Assembly: GCF_001435585.1 (NCBI RefSeq) | Contig: NZ_AZEC01000007.1 | Span: forward strand, 4,122-68,121 | From: Schleiferilactobacillus perolens DSM 12744 | GTDB taxonomy: Bacteria > Bacillota > Bacilli > Lactobacillales > Lactobacillaceae | Direction of reading: 5' to 3' | Length of the DNA: 64,000 bases | In this document: one piece after another, positions 14,142 to 63,884 of the stretch | Layout: each line of letters starts with the position of its first letter | Numbering within the stretch: the stretch's first letter is position 1 | Notes under the pieces: generated by a model | Seen by the model: the letters and a program-made list of their open reading frames with translations, nothing else | Told to the model about the DNA's origin: nothing | Database searches by the model: none | Translations under genes and position numbers: made by a program

Positions 14142-14151
14142 TAAAAATCGT

Positions 14152-17611: not shown

Positions 17612-17760
17612 CCACGCACAACACGGGGATTGTATTTACCCTGTGTTTTTTTTCGCCGGAACAGTCAAGGAAAACTTAAGATTTACCTCCGTTACCGGAC
17701 CAAATGCCAGATTTGCTATAATAAGACAGATTAGAGCATGCAGAAAGGAACTTTTCCCTC

Positions 17761-19507: not shown

Positions 19508-19518
19508 GGAGTCCAATC

Positions 19519-20964: not shown

Positions 20965-20989
20965 AAGAATTGTGTGTATTGGAGGACTC

Positions 20990-22576: not shown

Positions 22577-22581
22577 CTGTC

Positions 22582-24395: not shown

Positions 24396-24519
24396 ACACT
24401 TTTTGCGTATAAGATTTGCTGAAATAGAGTCAATTCGGCCTGTTAAATATGGTACAATGCACTACGTATATTGCACCCACAGTGGTGTGATCGGAATCAA
24501 AAAATAAGGGGTTGTCTCG

Positions 24520-26449: not shown

Positions 26450-26581
26450 AGTCTTAAGACTCTTGTAAACCAATCGTAATGCAGACTAAGGGGCAGGGCG
26501 GGTTATACTGGAATGGTCAATTAAGATTTTTTTAACGAACAACAGTGATTTTTCACTTTGCGTCAGGTCATGGTTGTTCGA

Positions 26582-44595: not shown

Positions 44596-46368
44596 ATGAA
44601 GAAAAGTTTCCAATTTGTCGCTGCTACTGCCTTGGCATTATTAGCGGTGGCACCAATGACCGTCGTGCCAGTGACTACCCAGGCTGCCACAAGCCAGGCC
44701 GCAAGTAACACCATCCAATCCTATCGCGATGTCGCCACGGTCGGCGGCAGTGCGATAAGCCTGTATAAAGTCGCAGGTAACAACGTGACCGCCACGGGAC
44801 AGCTGCCAGCTAATTCCGCTTGGAAAGTTACCGGTAAGATTGTGGTCAACGGACAAACCTATTACCAAGTGAGTACGACTCAATTTGTCGCCGATAAAGA
44901 CGTGACGTTAGCCAGCAAGCAAACCGCGCTGCCGGCCCGGACGGTCATTGGGTTACGGCGCAATGCCACCCTGTACAGCGGTACAGGCAGTGATCGCACC
45001 CCTACCAGCCGGACATTACAGGCAGGATCTGTCTGGCTGACCAACGCCAAGGTCGCCGTCAATGGCACCTTGTGGTATCAAGTCGCCCCGAATCTGTGGA
45101 TCAGCGACGATGATGTGGGTGAAATGCCCCACTCTGCAGCTACGCCGGTCAGTATGGTGGTCAAAATTGTGGATGATACCCCACTGTGGGATGGTTTCCA
45201 GTGGCGTTATACCGGCCGCTGGTTACCGACCAACTCCCGCTGGAAGGTCAACGCTACCGGTACCACTAGCGACGGCACCGAATATTATGAAGTCGGAGCC
45301 AATCAGTGGATTAAAGCTGGCAGTGCCACAGTAGAATCCAGCAGCAGCAGTGATTCCACCAGTCAAAACGGCGTGGACAAGCTCAGTGCTGCGGCCGATA
45401 GCGAACTGAAAGACCACCTGGCTTCTGAACAATTTGTCGGTACGTTACTGCTGATTCAAAACGGCCAAGTGATTTATAATCAAGGGACCGGGCAGGCAGA
45501 TAATGCCGCCGGTCGGGCAAATGGTCCGCAATCCTTATTCCAATTTGCATCTGTCCAAAAGTCGATGACGGCGGCCCTCGTCGCCCAATTGATCGCGCAG
45601 GGCAAATTGAGCTATAGCGACAACATTAGCCACTTTTATCCGACGATCCCAGCCGCGGACAACATCTCGATTCGCGATATGCTGGACATGACTTCTGGAT
45701 TATCCATGACCCTGGCCGTGCCGGATACCGTCATGACCGATGCGCAGGTGATCCAGCGGGGGCTGGATCTGCTCCAATACGATCCCGATCAACATGGCCA
45801 ATTCAATTATCAGGCAATCAACTATATTTTACTGGTCGGTGTATTGGAACAACTGACTGGGCAAAGCTACGAGAACCTTGTGCAACAAAACCTGCTCAAT
45901 CCATTAGGCCTTGGTGCGGATCAAGCCGGCTTTGCTTGGAACCTGGCCGCCCAACCCAACCATACCGTCAGCTATATTTCTGGCAACGGTCTGGGGACTT
46001 ATGATCAGATTTCAACGGAAACGTTAGCGGATATGCATAGTGAACTCGGTACTGGCAACATGTATTCCACGGCCTATGCATTGTACCAAATGGAAAAGGC
46101 AATTTCTCAAGGGCAACTCATTTCCGGCGATCAGCTGAGTGAATTACGGGACAGCAGTGACGGTAGCTGGGCGGGTGGTTTGTATAACTATCCCGATCAC
46201 TACTATGCCCATGGTGTGAAGAATTGGCAGGAAACCATTTTCTTAATGAGCAAGGACACCAATACGGCAGTGGTCTTCATCTCCAATCGGGCTTACGATT
46301 ATGACAATGCGGCCGCCCGGTCAGCGTGGTATTGGAACTTTGTGCAGAACGCATCTTTAGCAAATTAA
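44596..46368 (+). CDS. 3 SH3b repeats fused to a beta-lactamase-fold serine hydrolase
   Basis: Signal peptide. SVQKS (S-x-x-K) motif in FQFASVQKSMTAALVAQLIAQGKL. Confidence 0.8.
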   Translation: MKKSFQFVAATALALLAVAPMTVVPVTTQAATSQAASNTIQSYRDVATVGGSAISLYKVAGNNVTATGQLPANSAWKVTGKIVVNGQTYYQVSTTQFVADKDVTLASKQTALPARTVIGLRRNATLYSGTGSDRTPTSRTLQAGSVWLTNAKVAVNGTLWYQVAPNLWISDDDVGEMPHSAATPVSMVVKIVDDTPLWDGFQWRYTGRWLPTNSRWKVNATGTTSDGTEYYEVGANQWIKAGSATVESSSSSDSTSQNGVDKLSAAADSELKDHLASEQFVGTLLLIQNGQVIYNQGTGQADNAAGRANGPQSLFQFASVQKSMTAALVAQLIAQGKLSYSDNISHFYPTIPAADNISIRDMLDMTSGLSMTLAVPDTVMTDAQVIQRGLDLLQYDPDQHGQFNYQAINYILLVGVLEQLTGQSYENLVQQNLLNPLGLGADQAGFAWNLAAQPNHTVSYISGNGLGTYDQISTETLADMHSELGTGNMYSTAYALYQMEKAISQGQLISGDQLSELRDSSDGSWAGGLYNYPDHYYAHGVKNWQETIFLMSKDTNTAVVFISNRAYDYDNAAARSAWYWNFVQNASLAN

Positions 46369-46380
46369 CGAATTGGTTAA

Positions 46381-46405
46381 GATGGCTGAAAAGCCGTCTT
46401 TTTTT
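46381..46405 (+). terminator. Terminator
   Basis: GATGGCT-GAAA-AGCCGTC followed by TTTTTTT. Confidence 0.6.
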
Positions 46406-46489
46406 ACGCCTTTTCGGTAGCGTTTTCTTTCCTGTTATGGTATAGTCACACTGTTGAAACGTTACTGTAACATTAGGGAGATGTTCCGC

Positions 46490-47308
46490 ATGAAGATCAC
46501 TAAAGTTTTGGCGTCTTTTCTGTTGTTGGGCGGTGTTGGTTTAGCGGCGGCTGTGACCACCAGCAGTGTCGCACCTGCGCAGGCAGCCACAGTTTCCGCA
46601 CCGGCCGTCATTCGGTTGAATCAGACCGCTTGGATTATGGACCGCTCGGGGAACCATGTTGCCAATGAGGGGTATGGTACTTTGCCTGCGGGCACGAGTT
46701 GGCGGGTCACGGATGTCTTTGTGGATTCTGAGTATGGTCAGCTGTACATGCGTGTCTCTAAGGATGGATGGATTGCGTACGATGTTGACGATACTGCCAA
46801 CAGTGTGTTGTTGGCGCAATTGCGGGAGACTGCGCGGACGGTTGCTCAAAAGCAGGGCAATGCTGGTTTGTTTATCACGACAAAATCTGCGGACTCAATT
46901 AGCCAGACACTACTAGCCACACCTGTTGTTGACCGACCAGGGAGCAATACTGTTGTCCGTCAATTGCCGGCTGGCAGCCGTTGGCGGGTCACGAGTTATG
47001 CGAGTGCTCCGGCGATAGTGAAGGGAGACAACTCGGATCAGTATTTTCAAATTGCCACGAATCAATGGATAAAGAGCCAATATGTTCAAGTCCCAGCCGT
47101 CAATTATTTACAAGTCAAAGGTCAACCAGTCCAGGTTTATCAGTTCTCAGCGAATAAACTGCAAATGGTGCCGACACGACAACTCAAACCGCATACCGCT
47201 TGGCGCGCCAATGCTTTGTACAACAAAGCAATCAATGGGCCGTTTTATTTCCAAGTAGGCAGAAACGAGTGGATCACGAACCAGGGAGTTATCGTGAATA
47301 ATCATTAA
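46490..47308 (+). CDS. Secreted SH3b/GW-repeat-only protein (array member 1)
   Basis: MKITKVLASFLLLGG signal peptide. RBS AGGGAG. Three repeats. Confidence 0.8.
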   Translation: MKITKVLASFLLLGGVGLAAAVTTSSVAPAQAATVSAPAVIRLNQTAWIMDRSGNHVANEGYGTLPAGTSWRVTDVFVDSEYGQLYMRVSKDGWIAYDVDDTANSVLLAQLRETARTVAQKQGNAGLFITTKSADSISQTLLATPVVDRPGSNTVVRQLPAGSRWRVTSYASAPAIVKGDNSDQYFQIATNQWIKSQYVQVPAVNYLQVKGQPVQVYQFSANKLQMVPTRQLKPHTAWRANALYNKAINGPFYFQVGRNEWITNQGVIVNNH

Positions 47309-47331
47309 TCGCTCAGCGAGGAGGTTGAGTT

Positions 47332-48156
47332 ATGAAAGTCAGTAAAGTTTTGGCCTCACTGTTTTTATTGGGCGGTATCGTTCTAGCGGGTGGTGTAATG
47401 AATTCAGCATCCGCCCCAGTCCACGCAGCCACGACCGAACCAGCTATTATTCAATTAAACGATTCAACCCATATGCAGACCTATCAGGATGATGGCACAC
47501 AGAATCCCGGTTTGACGGATAAATTTACCGCAGGATCCCGTTGGCGGGTCACCGGGACAAAAGTCGGCAAAATGGGCGACGATTTATACATCCGGGTGGC
47601 CACCAACACTTGGCTGTATTACAACACCTTTGACGATGCAAATGCCACGCTGATCGCTCAGTTGCGGGCCGATGTCCAAGCCTATTCCCAAAAACAGGGC
47701 AACTTGGGCGGCTATGTCATTCCCACCCAAGTACTCAATGACATCGGCAAAACGCTGGCAAGCACACCCGTGGTAGAACGGCCGGGCAGTACGAAAGTGT
47801 TACGGCAATTACCGGCCGGGACTCGCTGGCGCTTGACCGCCCGAGCGTATAAGCCGTTGGTTACCAAAACCGATGACAGCGACGTCTATTTCCAAATTGC
47901 GACGGGTCAGTGGATCAACATCAAATATTTGGGGATTGAAATACGGTGGGGGTCACCGTTCATCGTGAACAATACGCCGGTCCAAGCCTACCGCTTTAAC
48001 GCCGCCACGCTGCAAATGGACGCCACGACACGTCAGCTCAAGCCATATACGGCATGGCGCATTAATGGATCGCACTACCTGACAGTGCGCGGTCAAGCTT
48101 ACTTGCTGGTTGGACAAAACGAATGGGTGAAGCCGCAGCAAGGTTCTAACAAGTGA
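47332..48156 (+). CDS. Secreted SH3b/GW-repeat-only protein (array member 2)
   Basis: MKVSKVLASLFLLGG signal peptide. RBS GAGGAGG. Confidence 0.8.
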   Translation: MKVSKVLASLFLLGGIVLAGGVMNSASAPVHAATTEPAIIQLNDSTHMQTYQDDGTQNPGLTDKFTAGSRWRVTGTKVGKMGDDLYIRVATNTWLYYNTFDDANATLIAQLRADVQAYSQKQGNLGGYVIPTQVLNDIGKTLASTPVVERPGSTKVLRQLPAGTRWRLTARAYKPLVTKTDDSDVYFQIATGQWINIKYLGIEIRWGSPFIVNNTPVQAYRFNAATLQMDATTRQLKPYTAWRINGSHYLTVRGQAYLLVGQNEWVKPQQGSNK

Positions 48157-48172
48157 AAGTGGGGAAATAATC

Positions 48173-49030
48173 ATGAAAATCAGCAAAGTTTTGGCATCGA
48201 TGCTGCTTTTATTGGGTGTGAGTGCAGCTAGTCAAGTAATCGCACAAAACAGTGTGCCAGTACAGGCTGCGACGGTTTCTGAACCGGCCGTGATTAATTT
48301 GCATGGTGATCGCGCAATCCTTTATGCTTGGCACAATGATGGGATGAAATATGCGCCCATGCTTCGTTCCTTGTGGGGTGGCAGCTGGCGGGTGACCGCT
48401 GTGCGGATTGATGCTCAGACGGGGGATATTTATTTCCGTGTGGCAACGGATGTTTGGATGAAATATTATTACTACAATACGCGTCCGACCCTCAACAAGA
48501 CGTTGGTGCAGCAAATGCAAAATACCGCCCAACAATATTCTAAGAGTCAGGGCAATATCGGTGGCTTTGTAAACAATGGGGATATTGATTACAAAATTGC
48601 GATCGTTAAGACATTAGCGAAGACACCGATCGTCGCTCAGCCCGGAAGTACCAAGGTGATCCGGACTTTACCAGAGGGAACACGCTGGCGGATTACGCAA
48701 CAGTCTTATCGATTGCTGCTCAGCGCAACCGATAATTCGCCAATCTATTATCAAGTCGCCAACCACCAATGGGTGGATGCCAAATATGTCGCGCAAGAGA
48801 TCAAAGCGTATCGGATTCCTGTACTTTCATTAGAGCAGGGGTTACAGGCCTATCGGTTTGACAACGCCAAACTCAAGATGATTCCGACGCGGTGGTTGGC
48901 ACCGCGCCAGAATTGGGGAATTGATTACCGGTATAGCCCGAGAATCAATTACACGTTTAAAGGGAGCTATTACTTCCAAATTGGGGCAAATGAATGGGTG
49001 ACTGGTGAAGGGGGTCAAGTAGGTAACTAG
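48173..49030 (+). CDS. Secreted SH3b/GW-repeat-only protein (array member 3)
   Basis: MKISKVLASMLLLLG signal peptide. Confidence 0.8.
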   Translation: MKISKVLASMLLLLGVSAASQVIAQNSVPVQAATVSEPAVINLHGDRAILYAWHNDGMKYAPMLRSLWGGSWRVTAVRIDAQTGDIYFRVATDVWMKYYYYNTRPTLNKTLVQQMQNTAQQYSKSQGNIGGFVNNGDIDYKIAIVKTLAKTPIVAQPGSTKVIRTLPEGTRWRITQQSYRLLLSATDNSPIYYQVANHQWVDAKYVAQEIKAYRIPVLSLEQGLQAYRFDNAKLKMIPTRWLAPRQNWGIDYRYSPRINYTFKGSYYFQIGANEWVTGEGGQVGN

Positions 49031-49084
49031 TAAAGGAAAAGTTGGTATTTGTCATTTTTTCAATCATGATTGGGGGAAAAGATC

Positions 49085-49936
49085 ATGAAACTCAAAAAGA
49101 TTTTGGCATCACTAATTCTATTGGGCGGTATCAGCATGGCGAGTGCAATCATTGGATTTACACGGGTACCAGTCCGTGCCGCAACAACTGAATCACCAAT
49201 TATCCGGTTAAACGGTCCTACCAATACGCAAACGTATCGCGATGATGGTACGGAAAATCCCGGTTTTACAAGTAAGTTTACGACAAACAGTGCTTGGCGT
49301 GTGACGGGTGCCCGGATGGGTCCGCTCGCAGACAGTTTGTATGTGCGAGTCGCCACCAATGAGTGGATTTACTATTCGATGCTTGACCATGCGAATGCAC
49401 CACTGATCAAGCAGTTGCGTGCAACCACTCAGGCATATTCAGTAAAACAGGGAAATTACGGTGGGTATGTCATTCCGGGAATCCCGCTTAATTATGTTGG
49501 CAGGACCGTTACTACGACACCAGTCGTCAATCGGCCGGGCAGCACCAAAATCGTGCGGCAATTACCCGCAGGGACGCAGTGGCGTTTGACTGCTGAGGCG
49601 CTCAAACCGTTGATTCTTAAAACAGATATGACGGATGAGTATTTCCAGATTGCAACCAATCAATGGGTTAACATGAAATACATGGCCGTATTTATCGATT
49701 TTAAGTCACCACTGGTTATCGGCAATCAGCCCGAGCGCGTGTACCGGTTTGATGACCATACGCTAAAAATGACAGCCACCGCTCGGCAACTCAAGCCACA
49801 TACGACTTGGCAAAACAATTGGGTGTACATGAACATGGCGAACGGTGAAACTTTCTCATTGAATCACGGACAAACCTATTTGCAGGTTGGCGGTAATGAG
49901 TGGGTTTATAGTCCGAATGCAAAGATTGCATACTGA
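49085..49936 (+). CDS. Secreted SH3b/GW-repeat-only protein (array member 4)
   Basis: MKLKKILASLILLGG signal peptide. RBS GGGGGA. Confidence 0.8.
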   Translation: MKLKKILASLILLGGISMASAIIGFTRVPVRAATTESPIIRLNGPTNTQTYRDDGTENPGFTSKFTTNSAWRVTGARMGPLADSLYVRVATNEWIYYSMLDHANAPLIKQLRATTQAYSVKQGNYGGYVIPGIPLNYVGRTVTTTPVVNRPGSTKIVRQLPAGTQWRLTAEALKPLILKTDMTDEYFQIATNQWVNMKYMAVFIDFKSPLVIGNQPERVYRFDDHTLKMTATARQLKPHTTWQNNWVYMNMANGETFSLNHGQTYLQVGGNEWVYSPNAKIAY

Positions 49937-49972
49937 TCGGTTTAACAAACCACGATTGGAGAAACAATTACG

Positions 49973-49996
49973 AAGCTGGCTGCGGCCAGCTTTTTT
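49973..49996 (+). terminator. Terminator after the 4-gene array
   Basis: AAGCTGGC-TGCG-GCCAGCTT followed by TTTTTC. Confidence 0.8.
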
Positions 49997-50063
49997 CATG
50001 CACAAAAAACGCCATTCCGAAACAATATCGAAATGACGCTCAAAATACTAACTAATCAAGAAA

Positions 50064-51545
50064 TCAAACAAACGGCCGGCCGACACCAGCGATCCAAGAC
50101 CGTTGCCAATTGGTCACCGGTTGAACCATGATCTTAGGCGGCCAGGATTCGATCACCATGTTGTTGCCCAGATAGATGGCCACATGCCAGATCAAACCGC
50201 TGCTCGGATCACGATAGAAAATCAGGTCGCCCCGTTGGCGTTCACCATAGGAAACCTTCTTCAGCAACGGGTTTGCCCAGAGATTGCGTGATTCCCATTC
50301 GTACCCAGGTTGGGCATGCCGGATGGAGGAAGAAGGTAACGGATTGATGCCGCTGCTGTACAGTGCCTGCATGACGAGGCCGCTGCAGTCGGTACCGTAA
50401 GCCGGAGAAGTGGAAGCACCCACGATATAAGGTTTACCCAGATACTGGTAAGCTGTACTGATCATGGCTTCAATATGATCACTGCGGGTACTGTTTTCGT
50501 TGGTCTTCAGCGGTGATACATACCCATCAATGGTGTAGAAATCATCACGTTTGAAGCCCATGTTCGTCCAGAACTTAACATCCACTTGTCCGGTAACTGG
50601 CAAGCCCCAACGCCGTTGATAGTACATGATCTTGTTGACGGCGGTTTGGTTCAGGTTGGCGTAAGAACGATCCATCCCTAACCACCAAAGCGTCAGCCAA
50701 GTCTTGATCCCTTCAGAGCCTAAGCGTAGATTGTAGCCCACTTTACCCTGGGGCAAGATTTGGGTGTTGCTGATTTGCCAATACTGACCAGGGTTTTGAT
50801 AAACCGCCTGGCGTTGCGCGCCACCGGCATTGATCCATTGATTGGCGCCGATTTGATACCATTGGGCACCATTTGAAGAACTGCCCGTCGCAGTGACTTT
50901 CCACTTCGAACCCTTCGCCAGCCAGCGGCCGCTGAATTTATATTGGAAACCAGTCCATAATGGCATGTCTTGGACCAGCGTGACGGTGAAGCTGTTCTTG
51001 TGAGCGGCACTGTGGCTCAGTTCACCCACATCGTTGGCGCTGACCCATTGGTTATCGCCAATTTGATACCAGGTTTGACCATTGGCCGTGGCGGTGTAAG
51101 TGGCAATCCACACCGATCCGGTGTTCAAAGTCCGACCGCTCTTTTGGGTACCCATACCGTTATACAATGGTGCATCGTGCTTTATCCCAATGACGTATCG
51201 GGCGGGCAGTTTTTGCCAAGTGCTGCGTAAAACAACGTCGCTAGCAAGGACATATTGCGTCGCGCTGACCCGATAATAATCCTTACCGGCCACGGTGGTT
51301 TTCCCTGTCAGGCGCCACGCAGAATTAGCTTTCAGTGTGCCATCTTTGACAGCAGTCGTGTTCTGCAGGGTGTAAATAGCCGCCCCATTCGGTCCAACGA
51401 CTCCCACATCGTTAAATGCTGCGACACCAACTGTTGGCGTGCTGCTCCCTGTAGCCGCTTGGGCAGTCGGGATTGTCGTCAACAGCGGCGCGGCGGCGAG
51501 AATGGCTAAAATAGCCATCGTCAGCCGCTTGCTTGCTTTCTTCAT
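50064..51545 (-). CDS. NlpC/P60-family hydrolase with N-terminal SH3b repeats
   Basis: C-terminal GKPYIVGAS…TDCSGLV…H motif. Signal peptide MKKASKRLTMAILAILAAAPLL. RBS GGGAGA. Confidence 0.8.
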   Translation of the reverse strand: MKKASKRLTMAILAILAAAPLLTTIPTAQAATGSSTPTVGVAAFNDVGVVGPNGAAIYTLQNTTAVKDGTLKANSAWRLTGKTTVAGKDYYRVSATQYVLASDVVLRSTWQKLPARYVIGIKHDAPLYNGMGTQKSGRTLNTGSVWIATYTATANGQTWYQIGDNQWVSANDVGELSHSAAHKNSFTVTLVQDMPLWTGFQYKFSGRWLAKGSKWKVTATGSSSNGAQWYQIGANQWINAGGAQRQAVYQNPGQYWQISNTQILPQGKVGYNLRLGSEGIKTWLTLWWLGMDRSYANLNQTAVNKIMYYQRRWGLPVTGQVDVKFWTNMGFKRDDFYTIDGYVSPLKTNENSTRSDHIEAMISTAYQYLGKPYIVGASTSPAYGTDCSGLVMQALYSSGINPLPSSSIRHAQPGYEWESRNLWANPLLKKVSYGERQRGDLIFYRDPSSGLIWHVAIYLGNNMVIESWPPKIMVQPVTNWQRSWIAGVGRPFV

Positions 51546-51649
51546 ATTTCCATCTCCCAAATTAAATCAACTTTACAACCATTATTATGATAGAATAAAT
51601 TGGTCGAAATTGATACCAAAATATCTTACATTGTTTGGGAGAAAATGTC

Positions 51650-53050
51650 ATGCAGAAGAAAAAATGGGTGAGTTTAGCAACATTTGGGGCACTACTACTG
51701 GCACTGGGCGGGTTGAGTGCACACCGGGCGGAGGCCACTGTCGCTAATGGTGTGTTGTATCTGAATCGACCGGCCACCATGTATCATGGCTACGATGATA
51801 CGCGGCAAAGCACCGGTCAAACATTGAAGGCCGGTTCGCAGTGGAAGATCACGGGTCAACAAGAGTCCGCTGGCGTGACCTGGTATCAGGTAGCCACCAA
51901 TACCTGGGTCACCGAGAATGCGCAATTTAACCCGCAACAATCTTACGGCGTGGTCCGGTTGAACCAGACCGCAACCATTTATACGGTGCCGGGGGACAAG
52001 AATACCAGCACCGGCCGCAATCTGAATGCCGGTTCCAGTTGGCGCGTGACGGACCAGCAGGTCGTTGCGGGCGTGACGTGGTACCAAGTCGCCACCAACA
52101 CCTGGGTGACCCAGAACTATGCGTTTAATCCAATTCCGTATCAAACGGTGACCCTAGCCCAACCGACCACGCTATACAACGGTTATGGGGCAGCGCGGCA
52201 ATCCACCGGCCGGACGCTGGCCATCGGCAGTGCCTGGAAGATTACCCATGCCGCCACGGAGAATGGGGTGACGTGGTACGAGATCGGCCCCAATCAGTGG
52301 ATCACGACCAACACCAGCTACAACCCTGTCCCGGATCACTTTGACAATGCCATTATGACGATTACCGTCAATACGAAGAATGGCGCCAATGTGTATTCGA
52401 GTTATCAAGCGGGCCGCTGGTGGGTGAATCGCCTGTCCTTTGGCTCTCGGTGGAAAGTGACACGACAAGCAGTCGCCAATGATGGTTCCCTCTGGTATCA
52501 GGTGGGGACGAATCAATGGGTGAGCGCCACTGGCGGGATTGCTACCGGCGTGGTGTATCCGAACAGCGCCTACATCAACGGTGTCCCGTTAATTTCCCAG
52601 TTGCCGGAATTGCCCAATGGCTGTGAAATCACCGCCGTCACCATGATGCTGCGGTACGCCGGGGCTAATGTGAATAAGATGCAGCTGGCCCGGGAAATGC
52701 CCCGGTCATCTAATCCCAATTATGGCTATATTGGCGATCCTTGGAATAATACCGGTATCACCATCTTTCCACCGGCGCTAATGAATATTGTGCAAAAATA
52801 TGCGGGCAATTCGATTAATATGACCGGCATGTCCTTTGATGCCATCCGCTACCAAGTGGGCATTCGTAAACATCCCGTGGTGGCTTGGATGACCATGCAT
52901 GGCTTCCCGTATCATGCGGTAGTCGTTACTGGGTATTCGGCCAGTAACGTCACGTACCTGGATTGCTGGACCAACAGTGTCGGGACGATGAGCATCGACG
53001 CGTTTGTCAATAATTGGCAAACTCAGAATCGCCGGGCGATCTCGTATTAA
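51650..53050 (+). CDS. 4 SH3b repeats fused to a C39-like papain-fold peptidase domain
   Basis: GCEITAVTMMLRYAG Cys motif and C-terminal His. RBS GGGAGA. Confidence 0.7.
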   Translation: MQKKKWVSLATFGALLLALGGLSAHRAEATVANGVLYLNRPATMYHGYDDTRQSTGQTLKAGSQWKITGQQESAGVTWYQVATNTWVTENAQFNPQQSYGVVRLNQTATIYTVPGDKNTSTGRNLNAGSSWRVTDQQVVAGVTWYQVATNTWVTQNYAFNPIPYQTVTLAQPTTLYNGYGAARQSTGRTLAIGSAWKITHAATENGVTWYEIGPNQWITTNTSYNPVPDHFDNAIMTITVNTKNGANVYSSYQAGRWWVNRLSFGSRWKVTRQAVANDGSLWYQVGTNQWVSATGGIATGVVYPNSAYINGVPLISQLPELPNGCEITAVTMMLRYAGANVNKMQLAREMPRSSNPNYGYIGDPWNNTGITIFPPALMNIVQKYAGNSINMTGMSFDAIRYQVGIRKHPVVAWMTMHGFPYHAVVVTGYSASNVTYLDCWTNSVGTMSIDAFVNNWQTQNRRAISY

Positions 53051-54458: not shown

Positions 54459-55910
54459 CTAGCGGTCCTGAACCTTAGACAGCCACCACTCTAGTCCAAG
54501 TCCGGCCATGATGAACCACATGGGCTGAACGGAGAAGGAATAACGATATTGGGTTTCAGTGACGAGATTCACGACAGCAAAGGTGAAGATGAAGAACACC
54601 ATCAGCAATTGCCGATCGTAACCCTTATGCAGCATGGGCCACAAACTGAAGAGGGCCAGAATGAAGATCCCCAGCATCCACATCGTCTTCACGCCGTCAT
54701 ACCAGCGGACAAGACGGGGATGGGTCTTTTGTAACTCAATGGTCGGGAAGATCAGGCCGCCTTTCCCAAACCAAAAGACGTTTTGCTTGGTGACGGCCAG
54801 GCGCGCCGCGGATTTGATCCCAGCTTTGCGCAGGTTTTGGATGTTTTCCATCAGCATCGCTTTGCTGGCGTCATGTTGGGAAAGGTGTTTCTCAGCCTTG
54901 ATCACTTTCGTCCGGGCTAACACCCGATTGCTATATTGCCCATTGCTGGATAACTCGATCCCAGTCGCAAACTTCCAGTAAGGATCCAGCACCTTCATGC
55001 CAGCCGGAGCCAAGCCGCTAGCCGATACACCGGCCGAGAAAACCGCATTGAACCCGAAGAAGGCCACCGCAATGACCACGAGGTTAAGCAGCCGTTTACG
55101 CCATTGGGGAGTGAATAAACCAAAGAAGAAGTAGGCACCCACAGCTACGATCAACGCCAAGCCATCCGGCCGTAAGAAGTTACCAACGCTCAGCACGAAG
55201 CCCGCTAATGCCACCCACAACCAACCATGATCTCGATCTTCAGCCAACGTCACGAAGTATAAACTAAGTAAGGTGAAGAAGGTACTGGCAATATTGTTCG
55301 TCAACACACCGTTATAAGCGATCGGAGTGGCAAACAAGGCATAGGCCAACCCAGCGAATTGCGCGACAAACTGTTTTGTGGAGAAACGATGGGCCAGCAA
55401 GTAAACCAACCATACACTGCCGGTACTTAATAGAAGATTGACGATGCGCAATGTCCAAATGGAGTTGAAAATCCGTAACAACACCGCTTCATAGAAAGAG
55501 AAGCCAACCTGATAAGGAAAACTGGCGAAGTAGTACCCTTTGTTAAAGGCTAGGTTGCCCTTCAGAATATCCTGGGCGGCGTTATACTGGACTAAGAAGT
55601 CTGATTCTGGTGCAGGGTGAAAAATAATCAACCCCACGATTCGCGCAATCAAGGCAATCGCCAATAGCCACCAGAGAAAATGATTACCATGATAGCGATT
55701 GGCCGTAAATGCCAATACCGCGAATACAGGTACCATTAATAGAAAGAACGGCCAATAACTGGGAATCAGTAAACTGCTGCCAAGCAGTGTAAAGGCAGAT
55801 AACAGGCCAAACACGATCCAAAAAATAATATGCAGCCATCGACCTGCGACATTAAAGCGCGGTGCAGACACTGGCTCAGGCTTAATATACATAGCAGAAA
55901 CCTCGCTCAT
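54459..55910 (-). CDS. Polytopic membrane protein, putative GT-C glycosyltransferase
   Basis: 483 aa with at least 11 TM helices. Confidence 0.65.
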   Translation of the reverse strand: MSEVSAMYIKPEPVSAPRFNVAGRWLHIIFWIVFGLLSAFTLLGSSLLIPSYWPFFLLMVPVFAVLAFTANRYHGNHFLWWLLAIALIARIVGLIIFHPAPESDFLVQYNAAQDILKGNLAFNKGYYFASFPYQVGFSFYEAVLLRIFNSIWTLRIVNLLLSTGSVWLVYLLAHRFSTKQFVAQFAGLAYALFATPIAYNGVLTNNIASTFFTLLSLYFVTLAEDRDHGWLWVALAGFVLSVGNFLRPDGLALIVAVGAYFFFGLFTPQWRKRLLNLVVIAVAFFGFNAVFSAGVSASGLAPAGMKVLDPYWKFATGIELSSNGQYSNRVLARTKVIKAEKHLSQHDASKAMLMENIQNLRKAGIKSAARLAVTKQNVFWFGKGGLIFPTIELQKTHPRLVRWYDGVKTMWMLGIFILALFSLWPMLHKGYDRQLLMVFFIFTFAVVNLVTETQYRYSFSVQPMWFIMAGLGLEWWLSKVQDR

Positions 55911-56184
55911 CCAAATTTACTCTCACAAAAAGTATACCTGTTAAGGCTACTTAGTGGAAGGTAACACACGGTACTTAAGGGCTTTAGGGCAAAAAAATAG
56001 CGATGCGCGCAAGCACACCGCCAACGATCAAATTATGAGCGTCAGTACCGAATACCAAAGTTAAGTATAACCGAGACCAACGGAAAAGGGAAGATAGATT
56101 GAAAAATTTTCTTGCCAAAGACTTCATTTATGGAAGCTTTCTTCAAGTGGGATGGCTTTGTTACGAAATTGATAAACTAAACAG

Positions 56185-56213
56185 TTAACATGTCTGTCCT
56201 AATCAGGTATAAT
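56185..56213 (+). promoter_or_regulatory. Strong sigma-A promoter P1 of the surface protein gene. A second candidate P2 lies at about 56271-56305.
   Basis: TTAACA, 17 nt, TATAAT. P2 is TTGTTC, 18 nt, TGtTATACT (extended -10). Confidence 0.6.
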
Positions 56214-56349
56214 CGACTTTGTACTAGAGTAAGACTCACCGAGTCGAAAACATGAACATTTTTGAAGTTTCTGTTGTTCCCATTTCCGACAGTGTGTTAT
56301 ACTAACTCATGGTATCAATTAAATTATGAGATTTTAGGAGGAATACCAA

Positions 56350-58776
56350 ATGAAGAATTCTTCAAAGGTTAAGTACTTTGGTGCTGTAGCCGCTGCTCTG
56401 TTGGCAGTAGCTCCGATTGCAGCTCCTGTAGTTAGCCAGATTGCTTCACCTGCTATTACACAGGCTGCTGATGCAGCAGACGTTGCTTTAACTTATGGCC
56501 AAGCTGATAATGTGAAGACCCAGTTAAACAATGATGCGTCGAGTTTCGTGATTAGTCATGATCAAGCTACTAAAAACGTGGCAGCGTGGCAGTCTTGGGT
56601 GAATGCAAATGCCCAAAACAACACTTCTACATCCAATATGCCTAATGCAAAAGATTGGTTGGGAACTGCTTTCAATACCGCAACTTCAGGGAACCCGTTT
56701 GTTAAGACTGCAACGACTGGTGCTGATATCTATTCACCGAAAAATGCAGATAATTCAAAGGCTAACGTTGGTTTAAGCTATACGGTTTCTGGTGGTTATG
56801 GGAACCAATTGTCCGCTAGCTCACAAACACAACAGATTGCAACGAACTTGCAATTAGCATCTATTGCTCAGGATGATTCCACTTATAATATTACGGTTAC
56901 TGCATACGATGTTCGTACGCAACAACCGTTAAAGGATTCAACTGGTGCAACAGTACAAAAGTCTTACAGTGTTACTATCCAAGGGACTAGCCCTGCACAA
57001 GCCACAGTTGCTTCTGGTACATTTAAGCCAGTAAACATTAAGGCTGGGGATAAGTTCCCTGGTGTGTTCGCTGATACAACAAGTGCTGCTGGTGATATCA
57101 CATTGACTGTCAATGGTAAGCCTGTTGCTATTAACGTTGCACAAGATGTTGAGAAACTTGGCTATGCTCAATCACAACCTGCTGATATTGGTACTGTAAC
57201 TCTTGCCATGAAGAATGGCATTGATGTGCTTGGCAATTACATTAATAAAGAAACCGGTTCTTGGACTGGTAATGGGGTTGCCTATCAGGTTGCTCAATTA
57301 GCTTCAAATAATCAGGCTATTGTCAGTTTAAAGGATTCCTTGAAGAACACTAAACCTGCTCTTCTTGGTGGAGACTTATGGTCCGATGGGGCAGGCAATC
57401 TGTTCCTGGTTCGTCCGGTTACAATTACTGATTCTGATTATAACCAGGCTTTGCCGACTGTATTTTATCAGTATCAAGCTACGCCTGCTAAACCAGTTCA
57501 ATATTGGGATGGCTCGACAGTTTATTTGACCACTGATGATGATGCCGCTTTGAACAAGTCCGGTGCACTTTTGACTCCTGATTTGGTTGCCGCTGCCGTT
57601 CGTGCAGTTGCTGTTGGCAAGAACTTAACTGCTAAACAGTCATCTACATCTGATGATCCTATTCCTACCGCAGATGGTAAAGGTTCTGTAACTTCTCTTG
57701 CTGATTTAGTAAAGGAAGTTAAGGCTGCTGCTGCTGCTGCTGGTGTCAATATTGGCAGTAGCTCAAATCAGTTTGATAAGTCTGCTTCTGTGTTGATCCC
57801 TGTTACCTTTACGAATGCTGCCAATTTGAAGACTACTGTCAAGATTCCTGTTACTCTTGATGCTACGACTCAGGGTGCTCCGGTATTCACATTTGCACAG
57901 GGTTGGGTACAAAATCCGACTGTTCAAGTTGGTCAACAGTTTAAAGCAACAGAAGGTATCTCTGCTTGGACTGATAGCAAACTGAATACGGCTATTGATC
58001 CAGTAGACTGGAAGATCGATGGTTCTGTTGATACAAGTAAAGCTGGCATTTACAACTTAACTTATACGATTACCAATCCTACGACTGGTAAGACTGCTCA
58101 ATTGAAGCGTACTGTTACTGTAACTGCTTCTGACAAATCTGTTTTTGAAAACACCAATGGTGTAATTTCTATTCAGACTTCAAAGGCCCCTCAGTACACT
58201 TACGATTCAGCTTCTGACAGCTTCAAGGTTGCTGACAGCTATACTCAATTGAAGTTAGCTTCTGCTTGGAAGTATAACCAAAAGGCTACTACTACGAATG
58301 GTGATGTTTACTACCGTGTAAGTGCTAATGGTTATGTTAAGGCAACTGACGTAACGACTGCTAAGGTTACTCCTCAGTTTGGTGTTGTAACTGTTAATAC
58401 CGACAACGGTACTAAGACTTACGCTAATACAACTAAGGATTCCGGCGCTGTACAAAGCATCAAGCCTGATACTGCTTGGAAGTTCTTCGCTGTTGCTGTT
58501 AACCCAGATGGCTCTCGTGCTTATCTGGTCGCTGACAATCAATGGATTCCTGCTTCTGACGTGGTTGAACGTGTTCAATCCGCTTCTGGCGTGTTCACTG
58601 TTGGTTCTGATGTAGCTCCGACATTCAATGGTTCTGGCTCTGTTGTTAAGGGCAAGACTTTGAAGGCTCGTTCCGCTTGGAAGGTTACCGGCGTTAAGAA
58701 TATTAACGGCCAACCTTACTATCGGATTGCTACTGACTTATATGTACGTGCCGATTACGGTTCTTACGCTAAGTAA
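56350..58776 (+). CDS. Large S-layer-like or major surface protein with 4 C-terminal SH3b repeats
   Basis: Signal peptide. T/A/S-rich. Much lower GC and T-ending codon bias than neighbouring genes. Big_3-like segment. Confidence 0.8.
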   Translation: MKNSSKVKYFGAVAAALLAVAPIAAPVVSQIASPAITQAADAADVALTYGQADNVKTQLNNDASSFVISHDQATKNVAAWQSWVNANAQNNTSTSNMPNAKDWLGTAFNTATSGNPFVKTATTGADIYSPKNADNSKANVGLSYTVSGGYGNQLSASSQTQQIATNLQLASIAQDDSTYNITVTAYDVRTQQPLKDSTGATVQKSYSVTIQGTSPAQATVASGTFKPVNIKAGDKFPGVFADTTSAAGDITLTVNGKPVAINVAQDVEKLGYAQSQPADIGTVTLAMKNGIDVLGNYINKETGSWTGNGVAYQVAQLASNNQAIVSLKDSLKNTKPALLGGDLWSDGAGNLFLVRPVTITDSDYNQALPTVFYQYQATPAKPVQYWDGSTVYLTTDDDAALNKSGALLTPDLVAAAVRAVAVGKNLTAKQSSTSDDPIPTADGKGSVTSLADLVKEVKAAAAAAGVNIGSSSNQFDKSASVLIPVTFTNAANLKTTVKIPVTLDATTQGAPVFTFAQGWVQNPTVQVGQQFKATEGISAWTDSKLNTAIDPVDWKIDGSVDTSKAGIYNLTYTITNPTTGKTAQLKRTVTVTASDKSVFENTNGVISIQTSKAPQYTYDSASDSFKVADSYTQLKLASAWKYNQKATTTNGDVYYRVSANGYVKATDVTTAKVTPQFGVVTVNTDNGTKTYANTTKDSGAVQSIKPDTAWKFFAVAVNPDGSRAYLVADNQWIPASDVVERVQSASGVFTVGSDVAPTFNGSGSVVKGKTLKARSAWKVTGVKNINGQPYYRIATDLYVRADYGSYAK

Positions 58777-58795
58777 TTAGCAAGTAGCTAGTTTA

Positions 58796-58827
58796 AAAAG
58801 TCCGATCGAAAGATCGGGCTTTTTTTG
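58796..58827 (+). terminator. Strong terminator
   Basis: AAAAAGTCCGATC-GAAA-GATCGGGCTTTTTTTG. Confidence 0.85.
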
Positions 58828-58880
58828 TACCCTCGTTTATGCGAAACTAGATTTAATCACATTGGCGAGGAAAGATAATT

Positions 58881-60524
58881 TTGAGGGGAAAAAATTTGTT
58901 ACGGCGGCAAGTGCCCGTCCAGTTACTGTTTATTGCACTTAGCATGCTGTACGTATTTATGTTGGCGCCTAGAGGCGTATTAACTCCGCGGGACAGTTTG
59001 GATGCTTATTTTCATTTAACACGTATTCAGGCGCTTAATGGGGTGTGGCAATCACCCATTAATTTTTTTGAATGGAACCATGTGGGCAACGCGACGTCTT
59101 TGTTTTACCCATGGTTAACGGTGGCAATTGGCTACCCACTATTTCACTTCTTTGGTGTGGTCCACGGCTATTTGGTATTTATGGGGTTAGTGACATATGC
59201 TACGTTGCTGGCGGCATATGTGAGTTACAGCAAGTTTCGTCACACCGAATGGCCAGCTATTCTTTTTGCTTTGGTTTACACATTTTCCTTTGTCAGAGCG
59301 TCTAACGTCCTATACCGCTGGGGTGTGGGTGAGTTTATGGCGATGATCTTTATACCACCGCTTTTTCTGGCCTTCTACGCGGTGCTCAAGGGTCATTGGG
59401 CGTCATGGCCGTATGCGGCGTTGTGGTTCTCGCTCATTATCTATTCCCATGTTTTGTCTGTCGTGATCATTGGCATCAACTTGCTGGTTTTATTTCTGAC
59501 GGCATTGGTTGTTCGGTGGGGGGCCTGGTCATATTGGCGACAATTGTTTCTTCGCGCTGTTCAGTTTGGACTGACCACATTGTTATTGACCATGGCTTAT
59601 TGGGGGCCGATGGTTGAACAGCAATTGTATCAGCCACTGAATCGGCCCGCTGTCTTTAACATGGTCCATGCTGGTCAATCATTACCTCAGTTACTAAATA
59701 GTTCATTGCGACTTGATGTGCGTTCTTATGCACTTGGTGTGTTTCTCTTGGTTGTCTTGGTGGGGGTAGTGCTCACCATCTGGTTTACTGATTGGGTCGG
59801 GCGCACCATGGGGCTAATGGCCCTTGTCATGTTGGTACTATCATCGACGACATTTCCTTGGGGACTGCTGCAAAATACGCCAGTGAATATCATTCAATAT
59901 CCCGGGCGTTTTTTGGGGATGGTTATGTTTTGGGGTGTCCTATATCTGGTTTACATGCTGGAGACTCACTGGCAGACATGGCACGTGCCGATTCAGGCTG
60001 TGACTACCATCAGTATCGGTGCAATTGCGGTAGGACTGTTTGTTGGCTCAGCACGCGCACTTTGGCACACGAATACGATTATTCCAGTCAACATGGCCTG
60101 GATCACCAATGATAACGCCCCGGCTCGGCTCAGAGCTTTCAATCAAAGGGATTATTATCCGGTCCGGGCCGTGAAGTATGCGCAATCCATTGAGGCCCAT
60201 GAAACGTTGTTGAATGATCAAGTGATCAACGCACCATTGCATTATTCGCAGACGGCAGCGTCGTGGCAAGTGCACCTGAGAGAGGATGGTCGACTGGATC
60301 TCCCTGTCTTGCGTTTTAAGGGCACTCGGACATGGGTGGATGGCGAACTGCGTTCATCCTCTGCTTCGCCGCGCGGAACCGCCCAAATCGCGGTGACGAA
60401 GGGTGCTCATCGTATCGTGGTCGCTGGGTCGTATACTTGGTTCGCCAAGTTTTCCATATTGATGTCGGTGATCACTGCTGGATTGCTGGGAACGATGTTG
60501 TTTATGCGCAAGCACCGAGCGTGA
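58881..60524 (+). CDS. Polytopic membrane protein, putative GT-C glycosyltransferase (YfhO-like)
   Basis: TTG start after GAGGAAAG. At least 12 TM helices. Confidence 0.65.
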   Translation: MRGKNLLRRQVPVQLLFIALSMLYVFMLAPRGVLTPRDSLDAYFHLTRIQALNGVWQSPINFFEWNHVGNATSLFYPWLTVAIGYPLFHFFGVVHGYLVFMGLVTYATLLAAYVSYSKFRHTEWPAILFALVYTFSFVRASNVLYRWGVGEFMAMIFIPPLFLAFYAVLKGHWASWPYAALWFSLIIYSHVLSVVIIGINLLVLFLTALVVRWGAWSYWRQLFLRAVQFGLTTLLLTMAYWGPMVEQQLYQPLNRPAVFNMVHAGQSLPQLLNSSLRLDVRSYALGVFLLVVLVGVVLTIWFTDWVGRTMGLMALVMLVLSSTTFPWGLLQNTPVNIIQYPGRFLGMVMFWGVLYLVYMLETHWQTWHVPIQAVTTISIGAIAVGLFVGSARALWHTNTIIPVNMAWITNDNAPARLRAFNQRDYYPVRAVKYAQSIEAHETLLNDQVINAPLHYSQTAASWQVHLREDGRLDLPVLRFKGTRTWVDGELRSSSASPRGTAQIAVTKGAHRIVVAGSYTWFAKFSILMSVITAGLLGTMLFMRKHRA

Positions 60525-61567: not shown

Positions 61568-61958
61568 AAATTGTTCGCCAAGAGTTCAAAATAGACAAAA
61601 AAAGACGGTGACAGGGCTGATATTAAGGCGTTTAATCAAAAAAATATCAGAAATCCGCGTTAAAGGAGAAGAACAATTAATATACAGATAAAATTATTCG
61701 TTCGGAAATAGACACCTATGTTAGTTTTCTCGCCTAAAGACAGTGACTGTGGTTCAGACGCTTTATTAGACAGCTTTTTATCAAATAGCCAGATTGATTT
61801 CGCAACCTCCACGAGAGAACTAAAGTAATCTGTATTTTTGTGAGGCCGGTAATTTGTCTAAGCTAAAAATTGCGATGGTCATTGCTACGAAATTTTCCAA
61901 TAGGGTGCTATATTATGGCTGGTGGGAAGAGTCAGATCGTGGGAAAGAGGAGAATGGT

Positions 61959-63884
61959 ATGTCGATTCATGTGAAGAAGTGGACGCTGATCGGGATTATC
62001 AGCGTGCTGGTTGGCATTGGGGTAGTTGCCACGCCTAATGTACTTGCTGGTACTGATTCAGGGGCACACAACCAGCTGCAAACCACGCCGCTTGTGCAGA
62101 ATTCGTTATTGGGTCCCGGATATTATGATGACCAGGCGGAAAACTCGATTCCGCAAAATCAGTTGATGGCGCCAGCGCTGTTTTCTAATAACGATCAATT
62201 CCTGATGGATATCAAGCCTGGTGCTTTGGCAAGTTGGCAAAAGGGTGTGCTGCCTTCAGTGACTGTAGCCCAAGCGATCGTGGAGAGTGGCTGGGGCACC
62301 TCCCAGTTGGCGATTCAAGCGAATAATCTGTTCGGTATTAAAGGGGTGTACAACGGCCAGTCCATCTGGATGAATACCCGCGAAGTAATTAACGGACAGA
62401 GTGTGGTACAATCTGCCCAGTTTCGCAAGTATCCCAATCGTTCTGATTCGATCGTGGATCACGCAGACTTTTTAAACCAGAACTCTAGATATCGTAATTT
62501 GCTCGGTGTCCGCGATTACCGGACATTTGCGTCTTTACTTCAACAAGACGGTTATGCGACGGATCCCAATTATAGCAATGCGTTGATCAGCGTCATTCAA
62601 AGCAACAACTTGCAGGAATGGGATACAGAGGCATTTTCTGGCGTCGTGAAGAATGTCAGTTATGCGATGCAAATTAACCAGACTAATCGGCACGATGGCC
62701 TATACAGCAGTATCCCAGCAACGGGAATTGGTTCTCAATTCGTCGGTGCGGGGTACGCGGCTTCCTTTGACCAACAAGTGGTGGCAGTGAGTAAAGAAGT
62801 TGTGCTTAATGGTGTGACTTGGGTGAACTTCACCGTGGGCGGGAAGTCTTGCTGGATGGATAGGAATGGCCTCCGTTCTGGCAACTTCGGGATTGTTAAA
62901 GATGTGCATTACGCCATGCAAATCAATCAAAGCAGTCGACACGATGGCCTATACAGTCAAGTTCCCGCCGCAGGGATTGGCGCACAATTCGTCGGTGCGG
63001 GGTATGCATCCTCCTTTGACCATCAGGTGGTCGCCATATCCAAAGAGACCGTGATCAACAACACGACCTGGGTGTATATCACGATCGGCGATAAATCGTA
63101 TTGGATGGACAAAAATGGTCTGATTGTCGGCCAATTTGGTATTGTGAAAAACGTCAACTATGCAATGCAGATCAACCAATCCAACCGACATGATGGCTTA
63201 TATCGCAGTGTCCCTGCCGCAGGGAGCGGCCCCCAATTCGTTGGGGCTGACGAATATGCCCAGACATTTGATCAACAGGTGGTGGCAATTACCAAAGAAG
63301 CCGTGATTGGTGATACGACGTGGGTCTATTTCACCATTAACGGTAAAGCCTACTGGATGGATCAAAAGGGTTTGGTTGGCGGCTTTGGCATCGTCAAAAA
63401 CGTCAATTACGCCATGAAAATCGATCAAACCAGCCGGCATGATGGTCTGTACACCAGTGTTCCCGCGCCCAGCATCGGCTTGCAATTTGTCGGTGCAGCC
63501 GCTGCTCAGACAATTGATCAACAAGTCGTCGCCGTGACTAAAGAGGTGGTCATCAACGGTGAGACGTGGGTCTATTTCACGACGAACGCCGGCAAGTCCT
63601 ATTGGATCGACAAGAAGGGCCTGGTTGGTGGTTATGGTATTGTCCAGAATGTGAATTATAAGATGCAGATCAACCAGGCTAACCGCCATGATGGTTTGTA
63701 CAGCAGCGTGCCAGCACCAGGAATTGGCTCGCAATTCGTTGGTGCGGGTGAATATGCCAGTTCGTTTGACCGTCAAGTGGTTACAGTCAGCAAAGAGGTC
63801 GTTATTCAAAATGTGACGTGGGTGTGTGTTAGCATTGCGGGTAAGACGTATTGGATGGATAAGAGCGGGCTCCTCTCTGCTTAA
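61959..63884 (+). CDS. GH73 N-acetylglucosaminidase with 5 C-terminal SH3b repeats
   Basis: AQAIVESGWGTS…NNLFGIKG catalytic motif. Five 80-aa repeats VKNVNYAMQINQ…RHDGLY…WVYFT…YWMD. RBS AAGAGGAG. Confidence 0.85.
   Translation: MSIHVKKWTLIGIISVLVGIGVVATPNVLAGTDSGAHNQLQTTPLVQNSLLGPGYYDDQAENSIPQNQLMAPALFSNNDQFLMDIKPGALASWQKGVLPSVTVAQAIVESGWGTSQLAIQANNLFGIKGVYNGQSIWMNTREVINGQSVVQSAQFRKYPNRSDSIVDHADFLNQNSRYRNLLGVRDYRTFASLLQQDGYATDPNYSNALISVIQSNNLQEWDTEAFSGVVKNVSYAMQINQTNRHDGLYSSIPATGIGSQFVGAGYAASFDQQVVAVSKEVVLNGVTWVNFTVGGKSCWMDRNGLRSGNFGIVKDVHYAMQINQSSRHDGLYSQVPAAGIGAQFVGAGYASSFDHQVVAISKETVINNTTWVYITIGDKSYWMDKNGLIVGQFGIVKNVNYAMQINQSNRHDGLYRSVPAAGSGPQFVGADEYAQTFDQQVVAITKEAVIGDTTWVYFTINGKAYWMDQKGLVGGFGIVKNVNYAMKIDQTSRHDGLYTSVPAPSIGLQFVGAAAAQTIDQQVVAVTKEVVINGETWVYFTTNAGKSYWIDKKGLVGGYGIVQNVNYKMQINQANRHDGLYSSVPAPGIGSQFVGAGEYASSFDRQVVTVSKEVVIQNVTWVCVSIAGKTYWMDKSGLLSA

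Follow-up and report, generated by a model that had tools for sequence, protein, structure and literature searches.

We analysed a surface-protein gene, designated slp, in a 64,000-nt stretch of the Schleiferilactobacillus perolens DSM 12744 genome (the window, to which all position numbers refer). The slp open reading frame (ORF) spans 56350..58776 on the plus strand and encodes an 808-aa protein with 100% identity to the NCBI entry 'SLAP domain-containing protein [Schleiferilactobacillus perolens]'. An earlier reading made from the letters alone (the sequence-only reading) had taken slp for a very highly expressed S-layer-like gene or, alternatively, a horizontally acquired one. We conclude, with a probability of roughly 0.6, that the product is the major surface protein of S. 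perolens and most likely an SlpA-type S-layer protomer. The gene, its expression signals, and the parts of its product are arranged as follows:

56185..56213, plus strand: promoter P1, TTAACA-17-TATAAT, 11 of 12 consensus positions
56274..56303, plus strand: promoter P2, TTGTTC-18-TATACT, with an extended -10 (TGTTATACT, 56295..56303), read from the sequence
56323..56349, plus strand: translation-initiation region with ATTATGAG-N10-GAATACC (56323..56347), invariant in all chromosomal slp loci
56350..56469, plus strand: signal peptide, aa 1-40 (MKNSSKVKYFGAVAAALLAVAPIAAPVVSQIASPAITQA, followed by AD), whose N-region is rich in K and precedes a hydrophobic core and an AxA-type site
56470..58143, plus strand: exposed hypervariable body, aa 41-598, which includes the next entry
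57919..58122, plus strand: Big_3/Bact_surface_Ig-like domain, aa 524-591 (Pfam)
58144..58770, plus strand: three tandem SLAP repeats, aa 599-671, 672-740, and 741-807 (internal profile searches)
58795..58826, plus strand: intrinsic terminator consisting of A5, stem GUCCGAUC, loop GAAA, stem GAUCGGGC, and U7

Composition and codon usage

The GC content of slp was 43.3% versus 49.1% for the window, close to the ~43% and ~50% given by the sequence-only reading. The entire deficit was extra T at third codon positions. The T3 fraction of 0.505 compared to a background of 0.267±0.039 and was gained at the cost of C and G, A3 equaled the background (0.171 for both), and GC1 and GC2 were 0.50 and 0.47. 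Among the 51 ORFs of at least 100 aa that we compared, slp was an extreme outlier with the highest T3 (0.17-0.39 in other ORFs), and its GC3 was 0.324 (0.44-0.66 in other ORFs). Codon fractions were 0.67 for GCT, 0.57 for GTT, 0.56 for ACT, 0.61 for CCT, 0.57 for GGT, and 0.90 for CGT, bearing out the earlier description of heavy GCT, GTT, and ACT use unlike that of the neighboring genes. Lysine was encoded preferentially by AAG (0.76) over AAA, and ATA, AGA, AGG, CTA, CTC, CCC, CGA, and CGC were never used. The effective codon number (Nc) was 38.0 in slp and 52.1±4.4 in other window ORFs.

Ribosomal-protein genes of Lactobacillaceae prefer GUU, ACU, GCU, CGU, GGU, CCA, and UCA (PMC5629928). 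The combined fraction of these codons (frequency of optimal codons, Fop) was 0.51 in slp versus 0.198±0.048 in other ORFs. The bias was equal in the signal peptide, body, and anchor, and none of the at least 14 other window ORFs with SLAP repeats had it. This codon profile matches the optimal codons published for Lactobacillaceae ribosomal-protein genes and supports a prediction of very high expression.

Elevated T3 was kept in relatives, with 0.446 in the S. perolens allele P0006, 0.455 in a 670-aa S. harbinensis protein, and 0.435 in the S. shenzhenensis orthologue. The GC3 of the latter was 0.40, and that of its neighbor genes 0.77-0.87. The S. shenzhenensis orthologue is 57% identical to the window protein, a divergence at which synonymous sites should long have drifted to host composition unless under selection. 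The old optimal-codon set is known to persist, and to stand out more, in Lactobacillaceae species that have turned GC-rich (PMC5629928).

Expression signals

The intergenic leader (55911..56349) is 439 bp long with 37.6% GC, as AT-rich as the sequence-only reading had stated though somewhat longer than its 420 bp. Promoter-like sites in the region were not in excess of chance (5 found versus 6.0 expected from shuffles), which makes a consensus match weak proof on its own and conservation the stronger argument. The slp upstream sequences from two S. perolens strains were aligned with those from S. shenzhenensis and S. harbinensis. P1 was conserved in the three species with -35 TTAACA/TTCACA/TTAACA, -10 TATAAT, and 17-nt spacing over a diverging spacer sequence. 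P2 was conserved in the three species as TGnTAYAMT with an upstream TTGTYC. Both the near-consensus promoter and the extended -10 promoter of the sequence-only reading were thus located, with hexamers kept across species. A minus-strand promoter from the scan (56118..56091) was not conserved in the alignment and was dropped.

The Shine-Dalgarno (SD) sequence AGGAGG (56336..56341), enclosed by ATTATGAG-N10-GAATACC, lies 8 nt before the slp ATG, and the bases between SD and start codon, with both included, were invariant in the three species. The hairpin terminator described earlier was also found, with a 13-bp stem of -21.3 kcal/mol ahead of its U7 tail (z -5.05; 0/200 shuffles fold as well). 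The slp leader had no secondary structure conserved across the compared species and no Rfam family match. Two successive promoters lie upstream of slpA in Levilactobacillus brevis and Lactobacillus acidophilus, and twin promoters together with high abundance, at 10-15% of cell protein, are typical of lactobacillar S-layer protein genes (PMC10221546). Among the SLAP proteins of the window, only slp combines extreme codon bias with a twin-promoter module.

Protein architecture

Signal peptide and body. The cleavage site was read between TQA and AD, and the signal peptide was 85-98% identical across the whole slp family. The AlphaFold2 (AF2) model, built from a 35-sequence alignment (mean predicted local distance difference test, pLDDT, 72.6), left aa 1-42 disordered. 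Over aa 45-670 it was mostly confident and showed the body as a string of alpha/beta and beta domains. Self-assembly domains of SlpA-type S-layer proteins have an SlpA_I or SlpA_II fold, and the modeled body resembles the self-assembly domains of SlpA/SlpX (SlpA_II/SlpX_I-like fold). After one chitinase, its best structural matches were S-layer self-assembly domains and not adhesin domains. SlpA/SlpX-type folds were found only in Lactobacillus proteins in published AFDB searches (PMC11181022). The Ig-like segments of the sequence-only reading are real but amount to one domain (aa 524-591). The mature protein is rich in T, A, and S as had been noted (A 12.6%, T 11.7%, S 8.6%), with V at 9.8%, no Cys, and little Met or His.

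Anchor. The whole protein scored 47.4 bits against PF03217 (InterPro IPR024968; cut-off 23). Repeats 1 and 3 individually scored 23.9 and 32.8 bits, both above the gathering score, and repeat 2 was recognized solely by the internal repeat profile. A profile built from the slp repeats found no fourth C-terminal repeat. The four SH3b repeats of the sequence-only reading therefore become three of the SLAP family, though with an SH3b-like fold. Modeled alone with AF2, repeat 1 reached a pLDDT of 93 and superposed on the teichoic-acid-binding domains of SlpA/SlpX (8ALU, 7QFG, 8AOL, 7QEH) with TM scores of 0.59-0.64. The model of repeat 1 also matched SH3b wall-binding domains of phage lysins, so the SH3b label was right at the level of fold. 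The slp-family repeat profile matched PDB 7QEH (E 1.8e-4), the lipoteichoic acid (LTA)-binding domain of L. amylovorus SlpA. The 'Cake' designer proteins had the top PDB scores with this profile and were rejected as artifacts of many summed sub-threshold repeats, leaving 7QEH as the sole single-stretch match. The anchor region is basic (pI 9.5) and, by analogy to SlpA (PMC11181022), would bind lipoteichoic or wall teichoic acid. Taken together, the signal peptide, zero Cys, and SLAP repeats predict a secreted protein held non-covalently at the wall.

Family distribution and cassette exchange

The homology search returned 47 homologues, and all of those with a source name came from S. perolens, S. 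shenzhenensis, or S. harbinensis; no source-named match lay outside Schleiferilactobacillus. Exhaustive HMMER searching of body aa 41-520 against 1.84 billion representative proteins gave 4 matches, all to its own family, and the PDB sequence search with the slp protein matched only the Big_3 Ig-like domain of PDB 2KPN (aa 554-595). Neither search revealed homology to any characterized adhesin. By fold and anchor, the slp product probably belongs with the Lactobacillus SlpA-type S-layer proteins, in a genus new for these.

Another S. perolens strain carries the allele P0006 at the same locus, in the order PMT-family gene, slp, 542-aa membrane protein, 259-aa ORF, and glucosaminidase. At the DNA level, P0006 and the window were 94-95% identical in both flanks, one reaching codon 40 and the other starting near codon 575, and the 1.6 kb between these conserved flanks had no blastn similarity. 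Among the S. perolens alleles P0004-P0007, the anchor was 95-97% identical to that of the window protein and the body only 21-35%. P0002 and P0003 have an S. shenzhenensis-type anchor (66-67% identical), and their bodies were 44-65% and their Ig-like domains 81-84% identical to the window protein. The window body was closer to proteins with S. shenzhenensis-type anchors than to other S. perolens alleles (56470-58071 versus L002, L004, and P0002-P0009), and at least one other body type (P0004/P0008) was paired with both anchor types.

Anchors thus stay with their species and body types move from one species to another, which is cassette exchange through recombination in the conserved flanks. 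In these alignments, the slp body is a cassette that changes hands among strains and species with the signal peptide and anchor fixed, and the horizontal component of slp is exchange of this kind within the genus.

Shorter relatives of ~450 aa were found in S. harbinensis prophages and IMG/VR contigs (L007 8001-9380, L008 1735-3114, L012 1952-3331). They have the slp signal peptide and a two-repeat SLAP anchor, and sit between an integrase and an amidase/holin lysis cassette, a typical position for lysogenic conversion. The SD and start region of slp was kept in these genes and the upstream promoter and small RNA (sRNA)-like module (described below) was absent. T3 of the prophage-borne paralogues was 0.467. 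We found no 808-aa slp type in viral contigs. A metagenome match (L011) was discarded as a chance similarity inside an unrelated coding region.

A conserved divergent element upstream of slp

The leader also holds a conserved sRNA-like element on the strand opposite to slp:

55991..56069, minus strand: conserved sRNA-like element, divergent from slp
56069..56064, minus strand: its -10, TATACT
56023..55998, minus strand: its hairpin
55997..55991, minus strand: its U7 tail

Read on the minus strand, the layout is TATACT, 7 variable nt, a conserved body of ~45 nt, the hairpin, and the U-tract. A 40-nt core was identical in S. perolens, S. shenzhenensis, and S. harbinensis, and the block was conserved more strongly than the slp promoters. 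The -10 was conserved and the -35 was weak. The hairpin was kept in 5 sequences through one-sided changes with a varying loop, and its three G.U pairs mean that it forms only on the minus strand. The terminator scan also matched the element, and its fold had a z of -3.0. The first hairpin of the element, as predicted from the window sequence, was not conserved in the other species and was rejected. We found no Rfam family match for the element. In S. perolens as in S. shenzhenensis, the PMT-family gene follows ~80 nt after the terminator of the element, so that read-through would enter this gene.

The plus strand of the element body carries ATTATGAG-N10-GAATACC (56032..56056), which repeats, with a gap, the sequences on both sides of the slp ribosome-binding site (RBS). 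The element reads AAATTATGAG-CGTCAGTACC-GAATACCAAA on the plus strand, and the slp RBS region AAATTATGAG-ATTTTAGGAG-GAATACCAAA(TG). This bipartite motif occurred exactly 2 times in the window versus 0.09 expected. Each chromosomal slp locus in the three species contained two occurrences, and the prophage copies none. In all three species, two exact complementary segments of 8-10 nt flank the slp SD. Because the motif is repeated, a minus-strand RNA would pair with both flanks of the slp Shine-Dalgarno. The predicted duplex between the element and slp had an energy of -28.5 kcal/mol versus -13.8±3.2 for shuffles (1/2000 as good). Other 60-nt segments of the 64 kb reached lower duplex energies, so this energy alone is not specific. 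We regard the element as a candidate regulatory sRNA, the alternative being two sites at which a single factor would bind.

S-layer protein or other abundant surface protein

These observations suggest the following mechanism. Two tandem sigma-70-type promoters, a consensus RBS, optimal codons, and a strong terminator would yield very abundant mRNA and protein, which the 40-aa signal peptide is predicted to export via Sec. Three basic SLAP repeats, related to SlpA by homology and fold, would then hold wall or lipoteichoic acid non-covalently as SlpA does. The acidic body of ~560 aa, with its SlpA/SlpX-like self-assembly domains and one Ig-like domain, would face outward and may tile the cell surface as a lattice. 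Sequence comparison shows that homologous recombination across the leader-plus-signal-peptide and anchor flanks replaces the body cassette, both among strains and among species, and a likely driver is diversifying pressure, for example from phages using the layer as a receptor.

That the slp product is at the least the major, highly expressed, SLAP-anchored surface protein we hold with high confidence. That it truly forms a lattice is somewhat better supported than opposed, and several findings weigh against it. The mature protein is 80.8 kDa, larger than SlpA-type proteins, with a pI of 8.2 and a body pI of about 4.7 (body segments 4.7-8.3). A pI of about 9-10 and a mass of roughly 40-60 kDa are typical of lactobacillar S-layer proteins, and the slp product fits neither. 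A 2023 review listed S. harbinensis among the genomes without a match to known S-layer proteins, and our literature search on Schleiferilactobacillus found no S-layer report. No stabilizing structure was found in the 5' untranslated region, which folded no better than shuffles (z +0.57). The optimal-codon set is a published, family-level one and not that of S. perolens itself, Pro and Ser in slp prefer CCT and TCT instead of the CCA and UCA of that set, and C-ending codons in two-fold pyrimidine boxes were not enriched (0.34). Strong translational selection would usually predict such enrichment. The very high expression and S-layer character proposed by the sequence-only reading are thus favored by the anchor, body fold, conserved twin promoters, and codon profile, with the lattice itself as an inferred component.

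The main competing explanation, less probable and in our view unlikely, is an abundant SLAP-anchored surface protein that forms no lattice, either an IgdA-like Ig-domain adhesin or scaffold, or a variable decoy or phage receptor scattered in the wall. A Big_3/Bact_surface_Ig-like domain is present in slp, as in IgdA, an S-layer-associated protein of L. acidophilus with a Big_3 domain and an SH3-like (GW) anchor that is highly and constitutively expressed (PMC7090030). SLAP repeats serve as a general anchor in S. perolens, given the other window ORFs that carry them, and the acidic body, the 81 kDa size, and the unreported status of S-layers in Schleiferilactobacillus fit this explanation too. 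It is countered by the ranking of S-layer self-assembly domains as the best structural matches after the one chitinase, and by an extreme codon bias and twin-promoter module unique to slp among the window SLAP proteins. Neither the homologue set nor the literature offers another S-layer protein candidate in the genus with which the slp product could associate.

Two explanations attribute the unusual composition to gene flow. Recent acquisition of slp from an AT-rich donor, with low GC as the mark of foreign origin, would account for a GC content 6 points below the window, for IS66 and prophage genes near slp loci in related genomes and past the window end, and for the ~450-aa relatives on prophages. 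We consider it highly improbable. Such a donor would leave A-ending codons, and the data contradict this: only T3 is raised, A3 is at background, AAG outweighs AAA, and no ATA, AGA, or CTA codon occurs, with GC1 and GC2 at the values given above. The family is present across the genus and was found nowhere else, synteny of slp and the PMT gene holds in two species, no viral contig carried the 808-aa type, and the bias persists in the 57%-identical orthologue despite a GC3 background near 0.8. The low-GC donor offered as an alternative by the sequence-only reading was therefore not upheld. Slightly less remote, though still improbable, is that the composition is a property of a mobile cassette pool shared among Schleiferilactobacillus species and their phages, with gene flow and not translational selection keeping it uniform. 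The species-crossing body types (44-65% identity of the window body to P0002/P0003 versus 21-35% to S. perolens alleles) and the similar T3 of the prophage-borne paralogues (0.467) speak for such a pool. Against it, the signal peptide is biased like the body, as is the anchor, which is species-specific (66% identity between species), and the preferred codons are specifically those of highly expressed Lactobacillaceae genes. A cassette pool would also be compatible with high expression and S-layer function and is not an alternative to them.

Genomic neighborhood

Two predicted membrane proteins adjoin slp:

54459..55910, minus strand: PMT/PMT_2-family membrane glycosyltransferase (GT-C type), divergent from slp (Pfam PMT_2 1.1e-9, PMT 1.6e-7)
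58881..60524, plus strand: polytopic 547-aa membrane protein directly 3' of slp

The adjacency of the PMT-family gene and slp was kept in S. shenzhenensis and not in S. harbinensis. One might speculate that the enzyme glycosylates the S-layer protein or its teichoic-acid ligand. The 547-aa protein had no match in Pfam, NCBIfam, or PDB and could modify the surface protein or the teichoic-acid ligand. The S. shenzhenensis gene at the corresponding downstream position is unrelated to it and adjoins IS66-family genes. In S. harbinensis (L005) and S. shenzhenensis (L004), the slp loci are bordered by IS66 copies.

The SLAP-repeat profile identified at least 14 other window ORFs with two to four SLAP repeats, mostly three, located at 7365-10356, 14227-15918, 26558-27973, 40081-40872, and 44596-53050. 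They include beta-lactamase-family, NlpC/P60, and C39_2 proteins. Seven of these ORFs encode proteins of 263-288 aa that comprise little beyond a signal peptide and SLAP repeats, and four such paralogues of 274-288 aa form a tandem array (46454-49936). Its predicted gene content makes the window an island of surface proteins anchored to teichoic acid. Judged from ORF translations alone, the region 11654-25782 upstream of slp looks like a wall polysaccharide/teichoic-acid biosynthesis cluster that includes several large membrane proteins and, at 11654, the N-terminus of a TagD-like cytidylyltransferase.

A secreted NlpC/P60 hydrolase with three SH3_3 domains (32668-33897, minus strand) came second to slp in T3 (0.388; GC3 0.441) and is similar to p75-type enzymes, major secreted hydrolases in the L. 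casei group. The gene at 61854-63884 encodes a glucosaminidase that has five GW modules. It is followed, beyond the window end (L001 17668-22397), by phage-type repressor (HTH/S24), KilA-N, and M78 peptidase genes, which suggest a prophage or mobile element.

Implications

The findings would extend Lactobacillus-type S-layers to a genus (perolens, harbinensis, shenzhenensis) without a match in the 2023 survey. Such genes escape sequence-similarity searches against known S-layer proteins and are found by anchor, fold, and expression signature taken together. The cassette polymorphism and prophage-borne paralogues point to phage-driven surface variation. If confirmed, a short prophage protein of S-layer type that shares the signal peptide and anchor of slp would represent lysogenic conversion of the cell surface. 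Likewise, a ~67-nt RNA antisense to both slp SD flanks would control translation of the most abundant cell protein, and the conserved RBS-mimic element would allow post-transcriptional control to be tested for an S-layer gene. That all of these hold jointly, as an unrecognized genus-specific S-layer system with cross-species body cassettes on species-bound anchors, a prophage-borne short S-layer-type protein, and a ~67-nt divergent RNA controlling slp translation, is a tentative and rather doubtful proposition. The promoter, signal-peptide, and anchor module could serve surface display in these food- and beverage-associated bacteria.

Comparison with known systems

Clostridioides difficile slpA. 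Cassette exchange over conserved flanks is known for slpA of C. difficile, where SlpA is a general phage receptor (PMC10100898). As in slp, recombination among lineages exchanges a hypervariable exposed part and leaves the locus and the wall-binding part fixed. The C. difficile protein is unrelated, with CWB2 anchoring and cleavage into two subunits. Unlike in C. difficile, the exchange in slp crosses species, and for slp a role of phages is inferred only.

IgdA. Like IgdA, the slp product joins a Big_3 Ig-like domain to an SH3-like anchor for non-covalent attachment to the wall, and is presumed to be expressed constitutively at a high level. IgdA has a GW anchor and sits on the SlpA S-layer, whereas the slp product has a SLAP x3 anchor. 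Unlike in IgdA, most of the slp body is not Ig-like and resembles self-assembly domains, and no separate S-layer protein is known in the genus.

slpA of Levilactobacillus brevis and L. acidophilus. Two tandem promoters and an untranslated leader are common to slp and to slpA from Lev. brevis ATCC 8287 as well as L. acidophilus ATCC 4356 (PMC10221546). The promoters of the latter two were mapped experimentally, whereas those of S. perolens come from consensus and conservation only. The S. perolens leader differs in being without significant structure and in having an extra conserved upstream element on the opposite strand.

SlpA and SlpX. Compared to SlpA/SlpX of L. acidophilus and L. amylovorus (7QFI, 8BT9, 7QEC, 9RPL, 7QEH, 8ALU; PMC11181022), the slp body is without detectable sequence similarity and is acidic (pI about 4.7, overall pI 8.2), and the protein belongs to a different genus. 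The slp product has three SLAP repeats where known S-layer proteins have two, and at 81 kDa it is larger than SlpA, with an extra Big_3 Ig-like domain and further domains. The order of parts is the same in both: a signal peptide, an N-terminal exposed region, and C-terminal tandem SLAP/teichoic-acid-binding repeats. Like SlpA/SlpX, the slp product has an SlpA_II/SlpX_I-like fold predicted in its body, a basic anchor, and a variable exposed part joined to a conserved anchor.

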